Virus genome (UHGV): UHGV-0259485
Strand: one strand, 5' to 3'
Length of the DNA: 28,703 nt
Source: a virus
Below, piece by piece: positions 23,065 through 28,703 of this stretch. Numbering within the stretch: the stretch's first letter is position 1; every line of letters begins with the position of its first letter. The notes below the pieces were generated by a model. That model was not told the origin of the DNA. It saw nothing but the letters and a program-made list of their open reading frames with translations, and did no database searches. The position numbers and the translations under genes are program-made.

Positions 23065-25026
23065 TCATGCCGCGGCATCCGCGTTGTTCACTTCCACCTT
23101 CACACTGTCAATCAGCAGCGTATATGTCGCCGCCTTTGATATGGCTGGCAGTTGCAGTTTGTCCGCCGCCCCTGATGCCGGAGATTTCACCAGTGTGAAC
23201 GGCGTCCCCCGTTTCTCATCCAGTACCGGCGTCACCTGAATGCTGTTGTTTCCGGCAAACTCAAAAGCCAGTGTGTGCCATCCGTTATCAAAGACCCCGA
23301 ACGTATCCAGCTTCGCATTCGGCTTCTTGTGGTGCATCGCGTTCAGGTTCGTCGCATCCGTCTGCAGGAAGAAGGACATCAGCATGTCGTTGCCTTCCTC
23401 TGCCAGCGTCACTCCCTCCGGCAGGGACGACAACTGCCAGTAAATGCCCAGGGCAAACTGATTCGGCACCAGTGAACCCGGCAACTTAAACCGTACGCTC
23501 ACACGTCCTCCTTTCTTCAGCAACTCTGCCCCCTGCCCGGCTGCATCATGCTCCAGAAACCAGATGTGGTTTTCCGGTTTATTCAGTTGCAGGGCCTTAC
23601 CTCCCGTAGCCCCCGCATCACTGACCACCGCTTCAGCAATGTTTTTGTTAACATTGTCTCCGCTCGCCGGTTTGTGATAATAGCGCCAGCCCTGTGATGC
23701 CAGGTCTTCGCCGGACGCCAGCAGACTCATCAGGGTTCGGTTACTGACCGGACCTTCCGGCTCTCTCTCCGTACCTTCACCGGAAGGTCCGGTGGGCTTC
23801 ACCGTATCAGGCTGTTTTCCGGTAATGAATTCAGCGGTTCTCCCGGCATGCACAAGAATCGCCGTTGCCAGACGGTCGGAAATAATCCCACGACGTGCCC
23901 ATGATCCAAAATGCGTTTTACGGTCAGCCGTCGTCCAGGTTTTGGCGTCCGTTCGACCACCGGCTCCGTAATACCCAATATCCGCAACATCCGGATCTTC
24001 TGACGGCTCGTTGGTACCCACATTTCGCCCGTTTTCATCCGTCATAAACGGCACAAAGAAGATTTTTTTTGCGGATTTCGTCTTATATGCACCATACACC
24101 GCATCGTATTGCGAAGAATAAGTCTGCTTCCAGTAGTAGGTCGTGTCGCCACAAATCCAGGGAACTGATGACGGAGAGCCCCCGAGACACTGACCTCCGA
24201 ATTCCGACAGGTCAGAACGATATTTTTCCACCATGGAATCAAACAGCCCCGGCTGAGTGGCGTATGCACCCTGTTTCAAATCAAACTCGCCCTGCATCCA
24301 GACCACTGCAAGCAGAATATTTTTAGGGTTGGCCTTCAGTGCGGCCTGAGTACGGGTAAGCAGGTCCTTGTACAGTGGCTTATCTACACCCCAGCGTGCC
24401 GAGGTCTCGCTTGCGCCGGTGGATTCGCTGAAGGTACCTTCATCGCCCGCCAAAAATGCAGAACCACCACGGCAGCACGGAACCAGAAGAATACCGGCAT
24501 TCGCCGGAATAAACGGCAACAATTTCTTCGCGATATGTAATCCCTGCCCCACGCATCCATACTGAGCTGCGCTGGCTTTCGGGTGTGAAAACTTACTCAA
24601 ATCCTGAACATCATGCAGGCAGTGGTCCGCAGGAATAATGTCATTGTAGTTACAGGACGCACCACCCGGCGTGACAGTGCTGCGACGCGCCAGCTGTTTA
24701 ATACGCGGGTCCGGACGGTCATATGTCTCCGGCAGCGGAAGCCCTTCACCATACGCCATACCGTTTGACTGCCCGGCCAGGGCAACAACAAAGTAATACT
24801 CCGGGTTGCTGGTAGTGCTGATAACTGCGCCTTCTCCATCCGACGGCTTCACCACCACAGGTGTGGTGACATCACCTTCCGCCGCAATGGCCTGCATCAG
24901 GGTATAAGGCGTGATGGCCACCGGACTGCCAAATGGCTGCCACCCCTCCTTCAGTTTTTGTGTCAGTCGTTTCGCAAGGTCTGACGGCGATGCCGCCCTG
25001 ACCACGTCATAGTGTTTAAATGCCAT
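23065..25026 (-). CDS. nanS-p: Prophage sialate O-acetylesterase (NanS-p type: N-terminal DUF1737 plus SGNH/SASA esterase domain)
   Basis: 653 aa; MAFKHYDVVRAASPSDLAKRLTQKLKEGWQPFG N-terminus; GQSNG catalytic motif (YFVVALAGQSNGMAYG); located between tRNA cluster and holin as in Stx prophages. Confidence 0.8.
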   Translation of the reverse strand: MAFKHYDVVRAASPSDLAKRLTQKLKEGWQPFGSPVAITPYTLMQAIAAEGDVTTPVVVKPSDGEGAVISTTSNPEYYFVVALAGQSNGMAYGEGLPLPETYDRPDPRIKQLARRSTVTPGGASCNYNDIIPADHCLHDVQDLSKFSHPKASAAQYGCVGQGLHIAKKLLPFIPANAGILLVPCCRGGSAFLAGDEGTFSESTGASETSARWGVDKPLYKDLLTRTQAALKANPKNILLAVVWMQGEFDLKQGAYATQPGLFDSMVEKYRSDLSEFGGQCLGGSPSSVPWICGDTTYYWKQTYSSQYDAVYGAYKTKSAKKIFFVPFMTDENGRNVGTNEPSEDPDVADIGYYGAGGRTDAKTWTTADRKTHFGSWARRGIISDRLATAILVHAGRTAEFITGKQPDTVKPTGPSGEGTEREPEGPVSNRTLMSLLASGEDLASQGWRYYHKPASGDNVNKNIAEAVVSDAGATGGKALQLNKPENHIWFLEHDAAGQGAELLKKGGRVSVRFKLPGSLVPNQFALGIYWQLSSLPEGVTLAEEGNDMLMSFFLQTDATNLNAMHHKKPNAKLDTFGVFDNGWHTLAFEFAGNNSIQVTPVLDEKRGTPFTLVKSPASGAADKLQLPAISKAATYTLLIDSVKVEVNNADAAA

Positions 25027-25208
25027 GAATCCTCCCGGCCGGGATAATATTGTGAGTAAAATAAGGAGCGGGCTGAAGTCCGGAAGTTACAGGACAATGG
25101 CAGAAGAGAGACGACAGCCCGCAATTCGAAAAAGACCGCGCAGTTGCGCAGCCTTATGAATTCTGGTTAAAATCCATTCGATTATAAAAATGTATATCTC
25201 ATGCTGTT

Positions 25209-25234
25209 GCCCGAACCCACTCGGGCTTTTTTTT
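25209..25234 (+). terminator. Plus-strand terminator-like hairpin with no plus-strand gene upstream
   Basis: GCCCGA-ACCCAC-TCGGGC followed by T8; a second GC-rich hairpin (GCCCCTC-CGGA-GAGGGGC) at 25247-25264. Confidence 0.45.
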
Positions 25235-25479
25235 GCCCACAAGAAAGCCCCTCCGGAGAGGGGCTAAAGCCGCGTATCTGTATCATCATGCACATGATGC
25301 CGGGTGCCTCCCGGTGAGTTCAGTATCAGCACCTGAACCCGCACAGAAAGGATAAGGGTCGGTGACAAAACACCAGTTGCTGATTGCCCCTCCGCACAGG
25401 GGGATTCACCATGCCAGTTTCTTTTAACAAACTCCCCGCAAAACAGACAACTGTCAACCGTCTGAATTGTGAGACATTT

Positions 25480-25503
25480 AAAAAAAAGCCCGCAAAAGCG
25501 AGC
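25480..25503 (-). terminator. Rho-independent terminator just downstream of the tRNA cluster
   Basis: Minus-strand RNA GCUCGC-UUUU-GCGGGC (one G-U pair) followed by U8; 16 bp after tRNA-Arg 3' end. Confidence 0.65.
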
Positions 25504-25518
25504 CGGGAAAAATAAGTC

Positions 25519-25595
25519 TGGCGCGTTGTACTGGATTCGAACCAGTGACCGATTGCTTAGAAGGCAATTGCTCTGTCCGGCTGAGCTAATAACGC
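25519..25595 (-). tRNA. tRNA-Arg (anticodon UCU)
   Basis: Hand-folded cloverleaf: anticodon loop CTTCTAA, T-loop GGTTCGAATCC, encoded CCA; one A-C mismatch in acceptor stem. Third of the cluster, like argO in Stx phages. Confidence 0.75.
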
Positions 25596-25608
25596 AGGGT
25601 ACAGATAA

Positions 25609-25685
25609 TGGACCGCCATCGAGGACTCGAACCCCGCGCAACCAGCTTCGAAGGCTGGCGCTCTATCCTGATGAGCTAATGGCGG
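25609..25685 (-). tRNA. tRNA-Arg (anticodon UCG)
   Basis: Hand-folded cloverleaf: 7-bp acceptor stem, anticodon loop CTTCGAA, T-loop GGTTCGAGTCC, encoded CCA; unusual C1-G72. Middle gene, like argN. Confidence 0.7.
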
Positions 25686-25692
25686 TATGTGA

Positions 25693-25768
25693 TGGTGGCC
25701 CTTGCTGGATTTGAACCAGCGACCTGGCGATTATGAATCGCTCGCTCTCACCACTGAGCTAAAGGGCC
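25693..25768 (-). tRNA. tRNA-Ile2 (anticodon CAU, lysidine type) or tRNA-Met
   Basis: GGCCCTTTAGCTCAGTGGTGAGAGCGAGCGATTCATAATCGCC...CCA closely resembles E. coli ileX; anticodon loop TTCATAA. First of the cluster, like ileZ. Confidence 0.75.
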
Positions 25769-25796
25769 GAGCCAAAAAATAATAATCAGATGAAAA

Positions 25797-26510
25797 TCAA
25801 TAATCAAGCCCTTGCCTGGATACATATCTGTCTGGCGGGAAGCCATAATAGCGGTGAAATACAGAAATAAAGTAGGACCTGCTTGAATAACCGCATTTTT
25901 CTGCTATAGCCTGTCCATATCCATGCCGGGAACATAACATATTTACAGCAACACGCATCCGCTCTTCCAGCAACAAGCGACTGAACATGCCCCCTTCATT
26001 TTTCAGTTTTGTCTTTAACAAACTCTCACTCATATGCAACTGTAGAGCAATCGCACCAAGCGTCCAGCTTGCTGATATATCTGTCTGAATTATCGCCCTG
26101 ACTTTGGCACTTATGCTGGATAAACATCCACTTAAAAACAATGACATCCGTTCATCTGTTTCAAACAGAGACAGGCAGGCCATCATAAGAAACATATCCG
26201 TGGCCTCTCCGGAAAATCCCTGGCTGGTAATTAAAGCCGCAGCCAACGCAGGATTGTTGGGTTCCAGCAACAGGTAAAGCGGAATGTCAGTCAGACGAGT
26301 CCTCGTCAGCTTATGCTGACTTTCCAGATATTGACTTACGACGGATTCGCTTATATCGACAATTTTAACTTTGCCATAATGCATAAGGAAAAGCTCCCTG
26401 ATGCATTTGGTGGCCAGAACAACTGAGCCTGGCTTAAGTGACAACGTATCCTTTTCAAGAAAAATATTAATTGGGGAGCAAACCATGATAACTGAACAGA
26501 CAACAGCCAT
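25797..26510 (-). CDS. AraC-family transcriptional regulator (237 aa), prophage cargo
   Basis: C-terminal AraC-type double HTH (SESLLKTKLKNEGGMFSRLLLEERMRVA...GYSSRSYFISVFHRYYGFPPDRY); AT-rich gene; weak RBS. Confidence 0.75.
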   Translation of the reverse strand: MAVVCSVIMVCSPINIFLEKDTLSLKPGSVVLATKCIRELFLMHYGKVKIVDISESVVSQYLESQHKLTRTRLTDIPLYLLLEPNNPALAAALITSQGFSGEATDMFLMMACLSLFETDERMSLFLSGCLSSISAKVRAIIQTDISASWTLGAIALQLHMSESLLKTKLKNEGGMFSRLLLEERMRVAVNMLCSRHGYGQAIAEKCGYSSRSYFISVFHRYYGFPPDRYVSRQGLDY

Positions 26511-26644
26511 TATAATTTTACTTTCATTAGCAATTGGTTAGCTCAATTATAGCCCCAAAAGGTAAATTATCATCAACACATAAGCAAAGGACTGACAGGT
26601 GTCGCCCCCCCACCAGCCGCCCATTCACCACAAATAAAAAGCCT

Positions 26645-26842
26645 TCAGGACTGAAGGCGTCTGTAACAACCGCACTGATAGTCTGCCAGACCCGCCATAA
26701 CAAGCTGGGTCAGTATTAACTGGCAGCGTTCGCGTGAAAGGTAAGTATTCTGCGCAATCTCCCCGACTGTCGCCGGTTCGGTAACGCTTAATTCATCAAA
26801 CACAACTCTGGCGGTTTCTGTCATATCCTGCTGTTTCAGCAT
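26645..26842 (-). CDS. PapI/FaeA-like small winged-helix regulator (65 aa)
   Basis: ARVVFDELSVTEPATVGEIAQNTYLSRERCQLILTQLVMAGL resembles the PapI/FaeA fold pattern; upstream of the AraC gene. Confidence 0.45.
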   Translation of the reverse strand: MLKQQDMTETARVVFDELSVTEPATVGEIAQNTYLSRERCQLILTQLVMAGLADYQCGCYRRLQS

Positions 26843-26966
26843 GTCTTTTTACCCTTTCCGGTTAACGTGACATACCAATAACTCTTGTCTAAAAAGCCAG
26901 CAAGATAAAAAGCCAGTATTCACGACCACCAGCGTGTTTACTGTACTGCACCAAGTTTACAGGTAC

Positions 26967-26988
26967 AAAAAACCCGCTCAGTGGCGGG
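26967..26988 (-). terminator. Rho-independent terminator downstream of the 205-aa cargo gene (tR'-like position)
   Basis: Minus-strand RNA CCCGCC-ACUGA-GCGGG followed by U6; ~130 bp after the gene's stop. Confidence 0.6.
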
Positions 26989-27120
26989 TTTAAGTTGTGT
27001 GGCGAAGTAACCACTCTTAACACACTAATAGCATTTTTGTTATAACACAAGTAGCTCATTCAGTATTTTTAGAATCTTGACTTTCTTAAGCACGGCGAAC
27101 TCTGAATACCAAACATAAAA

Positions 27121-27738
27121 TCAATTATCTTCCAGGCCGGATGCTATCAACGAAAGCCTCTCAAAAAACGCTGTAGCAGCCTTGTCCAAAGTTGAATAAG
27201 TACTGTATTCTCCGTGTTCGGGACCAACCACTACCCATGGTCGTCTTTTTGGGATTCGGGACTTCTCAGAAATCACTGTTCCAGATATACCAATATCAAT
27301 TGTTACACCTGTTATTATTTTCTCTTCATCTCTTTCCCTGAACTCAATTGCCATAAATGCCGTTTTTTTTCGTTTCCCGTTTTTAAAAAAATCAAATAAA
27401 GCAAAGCGATGCTCATTAAAATCAACACCCCATCGTCCTTCAGGATAAAGGGCATGAAAGTTGTCATTTACGCTCTGCATCGTCTCATAAGCTTTAACTT
27501 CTAAATCTCCATAGTGCATAGATACCGCGCAGGAGTCACTGGGTAACTGTATTTTCCCAAGATTGAAAACCTTTACTGCTCCAGAACTATGGCATCTTGC
27601 CCGCAATTTATCCCCATTTATACTAATCGGAGAAATATTCCTTAATGTTCCGGGCTGGCTCCCTCCTAAGTAAACGACTGTTAAAGATTGCTTATTTTCA
27701 ATTGCATCAACTAATACATGCTCTACATTTTTATCCAT
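27121..27738 (-). CDS. Hypothetical protein (205 aa from ATG 27738), AT-rich cargo gene directly downstream of Q
   Basis: GGGAGG RBS 5 nt before ATG at 27738; MDKNVEHVLVDAIENKQSLTVVYLGGSQPGTLRNISPISI...; no family recognised; base composition visibly more AT-rich than the structural genes. Confidence 0.6.
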   Translation of the reverse strand: MDKNVEHVLVDAIENKQSLTVVYLGGSQPGTLRNISPISINGDKLRARCHSSGAVKVFNLGKIQLPSDSCAVSMHYGDLEVKAYETMQSVNDNFHALYPEGRWGVDFNEHRFALFDFFKNGKRKKTAFMAIEFRERDEEKIITGVTIDIGISGTVISEKSRIPKRRPWVVVGPEHGEYSTYSTLDKAATAFFERLSLIASGLEDN

Positions 27739-27813
27739 AATAACCTCCCAATGAACAGGTATCATCAGGAGGTTATAATAAAATATGATTATTTACTTTG
27801 ATTGAATTTATTA

Positions 27814-28185
27814 CTATATGTAACAATCAATTTCTAAAGATACCCCCAACATTGCCAGACAACCGTCAATAAACCCTTCAGCTTTCTGCAGTCTGATAAC
27901 AACCTGATTAAGTGATATCCCCAGTTTTACCCCCAACACCCGTAATGTAACCCCATACACATAATACATTTCCAGTAATTCGTATTGATACGGTTCCTTT
28001 TTCTTAAGAACTGTCATCGCAGAGCTAATGATCAGGCCATCGTCATCGCTACATTGCGGGCGGGATTTTACTTTCGAAGGAATTAATCCCTTAAAACCTG
28101 CAGCAACAGATGACCATTCCACATCCTCGTGATTATTTGCCACCCATGCCCCCCAACGTTCAAGAACCATTTGAATATCACGCAT
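27814..28185 (-). CDS. Q: Late-gene antiterminator Q (QuuD / phage 82-type)
   Basis: MRDIQMVLERWGAWVANNHEDVEWSSVAAGFKGLIPSKVKSRPQC... matches recalled E. coli QuuD-type Q; track ORF extends 5 codons further upstream. Confidence 0.8.
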   Translation of the reverse strand: MRDIQMVLERWGAWVANNHEDVEWSSVAAGFKGLIPSKVKSRPQCSDDDGLIISSAMTVLKKKEPYQYELLEMYYVYGVTLRVLGVKLGISLNQVVIRLQKAEGFIDGCLAMLGVSLEIDCYI

Positions 28186-28202
28186 CAACTTTCTCCACAA
28201 AA

Positions 28203-28703
28203 TCAGGCCAGCACGCCTATTGCCAGCGCACGATCGATAAAACGAAATATCAGCTCCAGCTGGGAGCCATACTTCTCTTCAAATGCCACGGTATCCGCAT
28301 GCAGCTCGTCGTGATGCTTTCTGCACAAAGGCAGCACGAAGAGGTCATGCGCTTTTGTACCCATTCCCCCCTGACCGTGGCCTATCAGGTGGTGGGGATC
28401 ATCAGCAGGCTTTCCACAACATGCACACGGCTGCGTCTTAACCCAGCGCGTGTACTTTTCATTAACCCAGCGGCGACGTTTGGGGCGTAACATAAAAGAC
28501 TCCGGCGACTCCGGATCCACTTTCAGCGCCAGCACCTTTTTCGCTTTATCCTGGATGATGCTGGTGGCAGGAACCGAAGGCACAAGGTCACTTTCCCGGG
28601 TGACAGACGGCACAACAGGCTTCGGTAATCTCAGTGCCTTACGGGCTGCACTTTCCGGTAAGGCATCCGCCAGATCATTACGAATCAGCCACCAGCACAG
28701 TTC
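28203..28703 (-). CDS. DUF968-like zinc-binding phage protein (5' end beyond window)
   Basis: Reading frame stays open to the window edge; C-terminal CACCGKPADDPHHLIGHGQGGMGTKAHDLFVLPLCRKHHDELH Cys/His cluster; immediately upstream of Q. Confidence 0.5.
   Translation of the reverse strand, partial: ELCWWLIRNDLADALPESAARKALRLPKPVVPSVTRESDLVPSVPATSIIQDKAKKVLALKVDPESPESFMLRPKRRRWVNEKYTRWVKTQPCACCGKPADDPHHLIGHGQGGMGTKAHDLFVLPLCRKHHDELHADTVAFEEKYGSQLELIFRFIDRALAIGVLA

Follow-up and report, generated by a model that had tools for sequence, protein, structure and literature searches.

The DNA analysed here, referred to as the window, is the whole 28,703-nucleotide stretch of the virus genome UHGV-0259485, and all features located below are read from its minus strand. 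A gene for an antiterminator Q of the short Q21-family form (27814-28185) codes for 123 amino acids from the start assigned by PGAP, matches Pfam family PF06530 (E 1.5e-47) and is homologous to Q of phage 21 (PDB 6P18/6JNX, E 5.6e-10); in the list of open reading frames it reaches to a TTG at 28200. An ORF for a 205-aa protein (27121-27738, WP_000360285.1), an HTH-less member of the WYL family, follows 75 bp downstream of the Q gene in the same orientation, and neither the sequence nor a terminator scan revealed a terminator between the two. The reality of the gene and its place upstream of a terminator are as described in the original prediction, and so is its strong ribosome-binding site, a GGGAGG Shine-Dalgarno (SD) sequence at 27749-27744 with a spacing of 5 nt to the ATG at 27738, the start chosen by PGAP for WP_000360285.1. 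The ORF list contains a 214-aa version with an ATG further upstream at 27765; this start was discarded, because it lacks an SD and lies inside a hairpin arm, while PGAP and all relatives begin at the 205-aa position.

The gene has a GC content of 39.6% (GC3 0.32), compared to a mean of 48.5% for the window, and a value this low is seen in just 2.3% of 618-nt windows. Its AT-richness, previously taken as a sign of foreign origin, is genuine yet moderate, and the gene counts as compositionally foreign. Compared to the 71%-identical allele of strain UPEC 26-1, it shows a dN/dS of 0.22 and is under purifying selection. Because of this value, the presence of the identical protein on at least 1000 E. 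coli contigs and the spread of homologues over several phyla, the ORF is more than a chance reading frame; a pseudogene is ruled out by the same dN/dS value and conservation, and what is encoded is a functional protein of two domains. Phage morons, as known from the HK97 and HK022 literature, are accessory genes of deviant composition with their own promoter and terminator. The gene resembles them in its composition and in its pattern of presence and absence, since Stx2-type phages have nothing in the same slot and other phages carry unrelated genes there.

Downstream of the gene follows an array that very probably represents the intact late-promoter module of the phage (27050-26967), comprising a Q-binding element (QBE), pR', a leader and tR', as judged from sequence comparisons. 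It begins with an allele-specific element, TTGTGTTATAACAAAAA (27034-27050), which is a candidate QBE over the -35/spacer region of pR', as indicated by its covariation with Q, its register and the corresponding place of the QBE in phage 21. The best candidate for the pR' -10 hexamer is TAGTGT (27022-27027), which has the form TAnnnT in every allele (once cAnnnT) and abuts an invariant block. The candidate hexamers, TTGTGT-17-TAGTGT, agree poorly with the sigma-70 consensus (7 of 12 positions) and were not flagged by a promoter scan. The invariant block, GTTAAGAGTGGTTACTTCGCCACACAACTTAAA (26989-27021), is the putative initial transcribed region, as suggested by the annotation of phage 21, and hardly changes among 71 distinct variants (about 126 loci), unlike the sequences on either side, which diverge. 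It contains TAAGAG at 27019-27014, comparable to the TAAGCT pause element of phage 21, and a 5-bp hairpin (27014-26999). Visual inspection and a comparison to phage 21 narrowed the -35, -10 and transcription start of pR' to two registers: either TAnnnT serves as -10 with a start near 27015, or transcription starts near 27021 as in phage 21, with TAAGAG as pause element. The module ends with an intrinsic terminator, the putative tR' (26967-26988), which consists of a CCCGC(C)/GCGGG stem (26988-26973) and a T-run (26972-26967). It lies 132 bp past the stop codon of the 205-aa gene and folds with -12 kcal/mol (RNAfold, z -3.4), in agreement with the clean terminator some 130 bp past the gene that had been noted before. 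Each of the 13 variants chosen to represent about 120 related loci retains it; a simple consensus terminator scan did not list it. No double compensatory changes were found in the terminator and leader in the variant comparison.

The assignment of this module is based on the relation between Q and the upstream element. Other E. coli Q alleles align to only the first 150-177 nt of the Q gene, and the C-terminal two-thirds (27814-28026) are allele-specific and AT-rich (39% GC vs 45% in the N-terminal part). The upstream element occupies a fixed register relative to the invariant leader and terminator in all loci and matches the C-terminal class of Q in 102 of 102 loci, which are those with detectable Q among about 126 related loci recovered and are not phylogenetically independent; they fall into four major classes, and the match holds regardless of cargo or distance. 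In Stx2-type phages the module follows Q after 27-38 bp, elsewhere after 620-3041 bp, and after the E. coli gene the module always occurs at +99 or +56. The array also resembles the cassette of phage 21, which is annotated in the order -35, QBE, -10, transcription start, the SDPE TAAGCTG and terminator within about 85 bp: the order and length of 27050-26967 are the same, the Q proteins are homologous, and in both cassettes a TAAG-type element stands just behind the likely start, followed some 50 nt later by a terminator. They differ in that the cassette starts 6 bp past Q in phage 21, whereas 792 bp with the cargo gene intervene here, in the length of Q (123 vs 162 aa in phage 21), in weaker promoter hexamers, and in the QBE, which consists of two 8-bp direct repeats in phage 21, whereas the candidate described here is a palindrome and the putative QBEs across the loci are palindromic or tandem short repeats.

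The 205-aa gene therefore appears, with strong support from these comparisons, to be cargo of this E. coli prophage in a hypervariable slot between a Q21-family Q gene and the site and promoter module of that same Q. Elsewhere the slot contains unrelated cargo in either orientation, mostly on the strand opposite to Q, including genes for Kiwa KwaB (E 2e-150), Lc/NmpC-like porins, an HNH effector and a PDC-S20 KAP NTPase. Porin genes of the Lc/NmpC type are lc of phage PA-2 and nmpC of DLP12. All these genes share the insertion point, are accessory and independent of Q; however, the porin, Kiwa and KAP NTPase genes are almost all encoded on the opposite strand and have their own signals, whereas the 205-aa gene is co-oriented with Q and preceded by an SD-sequestering hairpin. 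Because of this co-orientation, its regulation may differ from that of typical morons expressed in lysogens. Q presumably works only if its DNA-recognition half is passed on jointly with the cognate site, so that any gene located between the two would be dragged along. From its place in this variable slot, the 205-aa gene is probably a hitch-hiking accessory gene serving phage-phage or phage-host conflict. We found no earlier description of a defence hotspot between Q and pR' in a literature search.

The 75-bp spacer between the Q stop codon and the gene start (27739-27813) has a GC content of only 25% and was delimited from the sequence and an alignment with the UPEC 26-1 allele. A promoter scan found no consensus sigma-70 promoter in it. 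A weak -10 candidate, TATTAT (27775-27780), is suggested by the sequence, by population variants and by the allele alignment: 12 related loci have TATAAT at this site, and the divergent allele has TACAGT. This hexamer is speculative, was not flagged by the promoter scan and has no convincing -35 partner; a start about 7 nt past it would, speculatively, fall into the left arm of an RNA hairpin. The spacer also contains TTATAAC, which resembles a QBE but was dropped as a candidate, being missing from the UPEC 26-1 allele. The hairpin (27740-27776) is predicted to consist of a 15-bp stem, formed by arms at 27776-27762 (left) and 27754-27740 (right), and a 7-nt loop, with a folding energy of -23.3 kcal/mol in a 67-nt context (RNAfold, z -5.2), and the whole SD is base-paired within it. 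It is kept in the 76%-identical UPEC 26-1 allele (z -3.75), where the pairs are preserved via G-U/G-C/A-U switches, and one population variant turns a G.U into a G-C pair. Upstream of distant family members the hairpin is absent, except for a 9-bp analogue in phage PY3. An Rfam search (E<=1) over 25000-28703 yielded no family for the hairpin, the spacer or the leader; on the opposite strand, a weak match to STnc130 was below threshold and discarded.

The claim that the gene belongs to no recognisable family holds only in part. There is indeed no characterised full-length family: the matches in PHROGs (8498 and 31886) are both of unknown function, an NCBIfam search yielded nothing, the single 205-aa sequence found no match in the PDB, Foldseek found none among the viral BFVD structures at E<=1e-3, and PADLOC-DB v2 returned only weak generic WYL models for the protein (E 1e-3) and no consistent system among 107 relatives. 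The N-terminal third, however, is a WYL domain, as became apparent from the profile and structure searches that had been proposed. Following a helix (residues 3-14), residues 16-65 or thereabouts (27544-27693) form the five-stranded Sm/SH3-like beta-barrel expected of a WYL domain. The protein itself scores 16.5 bits against Pfam WYL (PF13280), below the cut-off of 21.8, while 63 of the 107 aligned relatives match this family (E<=0.1, best E 4.8e-8), and the family profile matches the WYL chains of DriD with E 1.3e-4. Y23, G26, R33 and K56 of the barrel are invariant in the family and G25, S27, G30, P37, A47, F58 and K62 nearly so; among the 107 relatives, Y23, R33 and K56 never vary, and F58 and K62 show 94% conservation. 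The residues in beta2, the beta2-beta3 loop and beta4/5 that make ligand contacts in WYL domains are thus represented. In the family profile, Y23, S27 and R33 align with Y168, S172 and R178 of DriD, while the position of DriD R176 is not conserved and carries a Thr in the 205-aa protein. The three aligned DriD residues are reported to contact the phosphates of ssDNA (PMC9186387). Some WYL domains bind c-di-GMP, as reported in PMC11880434. RNA is bound by some as well.

The known wHTH-WYL-WCX regulators, such as DriD of Caulobacter, CapW of CBASS, BrxR of BREX and PafBC, measure about 290-330 aa, whereas the 205-aa protein lacks both the winged HTH and the WCX/dimerisation domain and therefore has no route to sequence-specific control of transcription. 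None of the 107 relatives has an HTH match in Pfam, and the barrel begins around residue 16 behind a single helix. The protein also differs from WYL1, the accessory protein of Cas13d, which has an N-terminal RHH domain and a CRISPR link, with neither such a partner nor such a neighbourhood being present here. A further known protein with a WYL domain is the PIF1 helicase. The C-terminal part (residues 87-204 or thereabouts, 27127-27480) is a previously undescribed basic/aromatic alpha/beta domain composed of a helix, about five strands and a long helix, with a low-confidence insert at residues 134-167. Its conserved residues are W103, FKNGK (118-122), K125, RPW (166-168), A187 and F191, and it contains no acidic/His catalytic set. 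Searches of Pfam and the PDB showed no relation of this domain at a useful score, nor any informative structural neighbour.

The family of the 205-aa protein is uncharacterised and comprises 954 clusters at 50% identity, mostly of 187-210 aa, ranging from E. coli to Flavobacterium and a cyanophage; the gene described here is common in prophages of extra-intestinal pathogenic E. coli. Its members are stand-alone genes, found within defence islands and at accessory sites of temperate phages, and the distant ones are not linked to Q. Relatives adjoin a CI-like repressor gene in two related prophages, and one is convergent with a repressor gene and must therefore have its own promoter. The relative in Pseudoalteromonas phage PY3 lies between the genes for an integrase and a LexA-like repressor, and another is positioned after tail genes, while others are found beside genes for an Mrr-nSTAND3 protein and an SMC-like ATPase, or for an OLD-like ATPase and an HD protein. 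In nine contexts no conserved neighbouring partner was found beyond the repressor common to the two related prophages. In longer relatives the fusion partners are limited to zinc ribbons and transmembrane helices, with no enzymatic domain among them, the fusions to transmembrane helices having arisen independently.

With moderate confidence, we regard the gene as an uncharacterised WYL-domain cargo gene in the slot between Q and pR', coding for a non-enzymatic conflict protein that senses ssDNA or RNA. It would be transcribed from the early rightward operon by read-through of Q and possibly from a weak promoter of its own. The hairpin burying the SD would restrict translation of the read-through transcripts, and an mRNA beginning within its left arm would be translatable, resulting in low expression of the type seen in lysogens. 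By extrapolation from DriD and CapW, the protein may bind single-stranded nucleic acid, such as intermediates of replication, recombination or injection. It would be neither an enzyme nor a transcription factor and might act stoichiometrically, either excluding competing phages or modulating the response of the host. The tR' terminator would also halt any unmodified read-through from the gene.

The original prediction had placed the gene in the interval of pR' and tR' and, on the condition that pR' lies in the spacer, had expected a constitutive transcript in lysogens like the 6S RNA of lambda. This arrangement, which would make the gene the body of the pR'-to-tR' transcript, is very improbable, even though the spacer is AT-rich with -10-like hexamers and pR' lies within a few bp of Q in phage 21 and in Stx2-type phages. 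The Q-covarying element, the -10-like hexamer, the pause-type leader and the terminator all lie past the gene (27050-26989 for the parts preceding the terminator), in a fixed register at every one of about 126 related loci recovered (102 with detectable Q) and in the layout of phage 21. The spacer has no consensus promoter and is not conserved in comparison to other Q-proximal regions, the SD is buried in the predicted hairpin, and phage cdtI offers no space for a promoter between Q and its reverse-strand cargo, because the gap is just 23 bp. Since the probable pR' module lies downstream of the gene, the terminator would be a tR' that closes a leader of about 50 nt rather than the end of a pR'-driven mRNA of the gene. 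The counterpart of the lambda 6S RNA and of StxS, a small RNA of Stx phages, would be this leader (from about 27021 or 27015 to 26967), which does not include the gene and is probably made constitutively in lysogens, following the concept of pR' transcripts ending at tR' in lysogens (PMC7547250). The leader shows no similarity to StxS and matches no Rfam family, and a literature search for its sequence or the protein accessions gave no match in published papers. Even less credible is a role of the protein in the late switch of the phage itself, where it might bind the nascent RNA or the non-template strand of the complex paused at pR': single strands are bound by WYL and Sm-like folds and in E. 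coli the gene is physically enclosed by Q and the site of Q, but distant family members are unlinked to Q, and the same module works in phages with wholly different cargo or none at all.

The two remaining alternatives concern the direction of the conflict. It is possible, albeit not probable, that the gene codes for a single-gene defence or superinfection-exclusion protein, expressed in lysogens from its own weak promoter with a start inside the left arm of the hairpin, so that no other transcripts would be translated, and that this protein senses the ssDNA of an incoming phage and blocks that phage; this corresponds to the defence branch of the favoured explanation. It would agree with the known defence and lysogenic-conversion cargo in the slot, with relatives next to prophage repressors and within defence islands, one of them convergent with a repressor and in need of its own promoter, with the transmembrane fusions of some relatives, and with the TAnnnT hexamer, whose register is shared by both alleles and which 12 loci improve to TATAAT. 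However, the promoter is only putative and without an evident -35, TAnnnT is common by chance in DNA of 25% GC, and the protein neither has a recognisable effector domain nor matches a PADLOC model. An unlikely alternative function is counter-defence or host takeover, with delayed-early expression together with Q, the protein acting as an HTH-less WYL decoy that takes up the ssDNA, or another ligand, serving as alarm for host WYL regulators such as CapW and BrxR or for DNA-damage sensors, or as a protector of phage ssDNA intermediates. CapW and DriD are reported sensors of ssDNA (PMC11662680, PMC9186387), and the DriD-type contact residues are kept in the absence of an output domain, in a gene that directly follows Q in the same orientation with no terminator between them. 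The sequestered SD speaks against strong expression by read-through, and positions in chromosomal defence islands or next to repressors, as seen for the relatives, are atypical for anti-defence genes.

In recent work, WYL domains have come to be seen as alarm sensors for ssDNA, through which CBASS, BREX and damage responses independent of SOS are activated, and to our knowledge all characterised WYL sensors of ssDNA are transcription factors. We only tentatively propose a joint reading of the locus, which combines a class of stand-alone WYL sensors, a promoter-dependent translational switch and a linkage trap around the Q site. Under this joint reading, a widespread but unrecognised class of WYL sensors without transcription-factor output may have its founding E. 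coli member in the 205-aa protein. These could act as ssDNA-triggered single-gene systems of anti-phage defence or superinfection exclusion, or as phage-borne ssDNA sponges that blind the WYL-controlled immunity of the host. The ribosome-binding site may be closed on mRNA reading through from Q and open on mRNA from a proximal start, and the interval between the Q recognition domain and its cognate site may constitute a linkage trap and a hotspot of immunity cargo in lambdoid phages, which already contains Kiwa and other defence candidates. A large family that has kept the sensor and swapped the output for a basic domain would imply a second, non-transcriptional use of WYL domains in phage-host conflict, and the presence of the exact protein on at least 1000 contigs, in prophages of pathogenic E. 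coli, makes this easy to test. As by-products of the analysis, pR', candidate QBEs and tR' are placed for the whole group of short Q21-family antiterminators, four specificity classes of Q are predicted, and Q-independent cargo upstream of pR' can be separated from Q-dependent cargo downstream of tR', the site of the Stx toxin genes in related phages.

The prophage is of the lambdoid type from extra-intestinal pathogenic E. coli and carries its rightward/late genes on the minus strand; over a 1.7-kb query (26600-28300) it is 100% identical to S88 and other strains, next to intD. In minus-strand order, a DUF968 gene is followed by the antiterminator gene Q (27814-28185), a 75-bp spacer of 25% GC, the 205-aa ORF (27738-27121), 132 bp of non-coding DNA and an intrinsic terminator (26988-26967; -12 kcal/mol, z -3.4), after which come a 65-aa ORF, an AraC-like gene and three tRNAs. 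The original prediction had placed ORF and terminator correctly to the base, and its description of a strong ribosome binding site (Shine-Dalgarno GGGAGG 5 nt before the ATG) and of AT-richness (39.6% GC vs 48.5% for the window, with 2.3% of equal-length windows this low) was likewise borne out. At least 1000 contigs of E. coli encode the exact protein, under the label 'hypothetical' or 'WYL domain-containing', and the ORF is under purifying selection, with a dN/dS of 0.22 against the 71%-identical allele that strain UPEC 26-1 carries at this position.

As judged from sequence comparison, both pR', together with its Q-binding element, and tR' are very probably located on the downstream side of the 205-aa gene, and the leader measures about 50 nt. 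From about 27039 downward, the 3' flank of the gene is common to many lambdoid phages: in the Stx2 phage Stx2_14040 the shared block starts 20-38 bp past the Q stop codon, and in cdtI and mEp460 Q and block are 1.5 kb apart, with unrelated reverse-strand genes between them. About 120 further viral contigs were gathered by the invariant core GTTAAGAGTGGTTACTTCGCCACACA(A/G)CTTAAACC plus the terminator, and the distance from Q to the block ranges from 27 to 3041 bp across the collected loci; in the E. coli loci recovered with the 205-aa gene, the module always follows it, at +99 nt or, for the second allele, +56 nt. Directly upstream of the block (26989-27021), a 16-17-bp element is found in fixed register, followed by a hexamer TAnnnT (once cAnnnT). 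When four major classes are distinguished, the element class equals the class of the C-terminal (HTH-like) part of Q in 102 of 102 loci, counts which are not phylogenetically independent, yet single Q classes span 10-12 cargo lengths. Q proteins with ...ISKR... go with GCGGTCCGC, those with ...ISLR... with GCGTACGC, those with ...MTFM... with TACG(T/A)(A/T)CGTA and those with ...VTLR..., the type of the window, with GTTATAAC, and the match persists over many cargos and distances. Within the 28 nt that precede GTTAAGAG in the related loci (L001-L135), there is a short palindromic or tandem element, which in the window occupies 27034-27050. As each sequence class of the Q C-terminus pairs one-to-one with such an element next to pR', these elements are predicted to be the binding sites of short antiterminators of the Q21 family, with four specificity classes or more.

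The Q of the window is homologous to that of phage 21, whose annotation lists a -35, a 16-bp QBE, a -10, the start site, the pause element TAAGCTG and the terminator within about 85 bp, beginning 6 bp after Q. Positions 27050-26967 of the window agree with this cassette in order and size and contain TAAGAG in the invariant block. The regulatory module resembles an ordinary Q21-type cassette which has been moved away from Q by cargo. Its candidate pR' hexamers are weak by consensus and were missed by the promoter scan. The short leader appears to be the counterpart of lambda 6S RNA and StxS (PMC7547250), but without the 205-aa gene. The earlier assignment of the gene to the pR'/tR' position is not supported, because the Q-class-matched element, the invariant block and tR' all follow it. 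Past tR', the sequences split into several late-region types, some of them with a holin gene within about 120 nt.

Read from its flanks, the 205-aa gene appears to fill a cargo slot between Q and pR', neither replacing the pR'/tR' segment nor sitting within it. This interval is a cargo hotspot (loci L016-L135, viral contigs), occupied most commonly by Lc/NmpC-like porins on the reverse strand. Other occupants are the Kiwa pair KwaA/KwaB in L025 (KwaB at E 2e-150, the other member a membrane protein), a PDC-S20 KAP NTPase in L103, an HNH effector protein of the PDC-M68A type in L059, a DUF6731 protein with a membrane protein in phage cdtI (L003), as well as lipoproteins and Rha-like genes. The two- and three-gene cassettes of L021, L042, L063, L113 and L114 gave no match with PADLOC and may represent candidate defence genes. 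Similarity to other E. coli Q alleles, including quuD, is confined to the first 150-177 nt of this Q (83-93% identity), and an AT-rich tract spans the C-terminal part of Q through to the leader, indicating that Q specificity domain, cargo and cognate element together make up a single mosaic unit. Any cargo between two such co-adapted parts would be co-inherited with them, as in a 'linkage trap'. The mosaic junction falls within the Q gene, with 28027-28200 shared and 27814-28026 allele-specific.

Since no terminator was found between Q and the 205-aa gene, and the promoter scan revealed no consensus promoter in the 75-bp spacer, read-through from the early rightward operon would be the default source of its transcript. 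A 15-bp hairpin (27776-27740; -23.3 kcal/mol, z -5.2) pairs the entire Shine-Dalgarno sequence. It is kept in the 76%-identical UPEC 26-1 allele (z -3.75), where wobble or Watson-Crick switches preserve the pairs and one pair is lost, while population variants show a G.U to G-C change in one case and a broken basal pair in another. The hairpin is absent upstream of distant relatives, save for a 9-bp analogue in phage PY3, and thus looks like an adaptation to the co-oriented position. A -10-like TATTAT is present at 27780-27775, reading TATAAT in 12 loci and TACAGT in the other allele; an mRNA started from it would have its 5' end within the left arm, so that GAGG of the Shine-Dalgarno sequence stays unpaired. 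One may envisage a candidate switch by which read-through transcripts are silent and proximal transcripts translated. Some E. coli copies of the gene are frameshifted or truncated (L190/L191 region; P0003, P0006), and in one locus the left arm of the hairpin has been lost by rearrangement, suggesting that the gene is dispensable in some lineages.

Searched as a single sequence, the protein reaches 16.5 bits with Pfam WYL, below the cut-off of 21.8, yields generic WYL models only in PADLOC, matches PHROG 8498 ('unknown') and has no match in NCBIfam or PDB. An exhaustive profile search with clustering at 50% recovered a family of 954 representatives (191 at E <1e-30), nearly all of 187-210 aa with end-to-end matches. 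The view that the protein has no recognisable family is not supported, because 63 of 107 relatives match Pfam WYL and a confident two-domain AlphaFold model, built with a 107-sequence alignment (pLDDT 86), shows a WYL barrel at residues ~16-65, as do the profiles. The family profile matches DriD (E 1.3e-4) via the motif YxGGSxPGxxR, with Y23, S27 and R33 aligning to Y168, S172 and R178, which are reported as phosphate contacts in the DriD-ssDNA structure (PMC9186387); Y23, R33 and K56 are invariant across the family. The alpha/beta domain (residues ~87-204; a helix, about five strands and a long helix) has no Pfam match among the relatives searched, and its conserved residues (W103, FKNGK, K125, RPW, A187, F191) include no acidic/His cluster. 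The protein would be a WYL sensor standing on its own, with a C-terminal domain not described before. Among the relatives with extra domains (including P0127, P0143, P0144, P0090, P0194 and P0180), some carry N-terminal transmembrane helices and a coiled coil, others C-terminal zinc ribbons and transmembrane helices, and one a duplicated WYL barrel; such fusions suggest that this sensor also occurs in membrane-associated forms.

In those contexts that were readable, family members are solo genes in accessory positions, and no conserved partner gene was found. Relatives lie directly after, or convergent with, a CI-like repressor in two related prophages. In Pseudoalteromonas phage PY3 the gene has integrase on one side and a LexA-like repressor on the other, and its product is fused to a further 170 aa. 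One follows tail genes and adjoins a Rha gene, another lies upstream of terminase and another near an integrase; further ones have as neighbours an Mrr-nSTAND3 protein with an SMC-like ATPase, or an OLD-type ATPase with an HD protein, or belong to an array that includes SUKH-type immunity genes. Such a distribution suggests a part in conflict, between phage and host or between phages, without telling which side is served.

The favoured reading is that of a non-enzymatic protein which binds single-stranded nucleic acid and serves such a conflict. It may be likened to the sensor half of DriD, CapW and BrxR, but it lacks the HTH and the WCX domain, two features by which that family is defined. 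In structural terms, the protein therefore has the sensor of WYL regulators without their output, its ligand binding being predicted. Superinfection exclusion or defence of the lysogen is a tentative possibility for a protein which belongs to no described defence system, and a delayed-early counter-defence, with the protein serving as a decoy for ssDNA to counter host systems under WYL control, is less likely. That the protein takes part in the late switch of its own phage is hardly to be expected, since the relatives are not linked to Q. Very improbable, too, is the original prediction of a pR' in the Q-proximal spacer, transcribing the gene constitutively in lysogens like lambda 6S RNA: its notion of foreign, uncharacterised cargo after Q holds, but the mechanism is not supported.

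The 65-aa ORF past tR' (26645-26842 (-); PHROG 331) shows weak winged-helix matches (TrmB/MarR-like), all sub-threshold, and is followed by a terminator-like hairpin of its own (26658-26641); in many related phages, no other gene lies between it and tR'. A second, weaker terminator-like hairpin with a T-run (26912-26933 (-)), about 35 nt past tR', falls within sequence that one subgroup of the related phages conserves. The AraC-family regulator (25797-26510 (-); PHROG 1450; 43.8% GC vs the window mean of 48.5%) is closest to YdeO/GadX (NCBIfam E 4e-31, far under the equivalog cut-off) and occupies the position of a DNA methylase in other phages; its location between tR' and the tRNAs predicts Q-dependent expression, an own promoter being also possible. 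The tRNA genes (Met-CAT, Arg-TCG, Arg-TCT; 25519-25768 (-)) are arranged as those preceding stx2A in Stx2_14040; no toxin gene follows them here, the S88 annotation giving a SASA/NanS-type esterase and then lysis genes. Just downstream of the cluster, there is a full-length match to the STnc100 sRNA family (25235-25443 (-); 131.7 bits, E 6e-30), together with an AgvB-like match below threshold on the opposite strand and, at 25179-25231 (+), a match to the anti-sRNA AsxR whose score (63 bits) just equals the gathering score.
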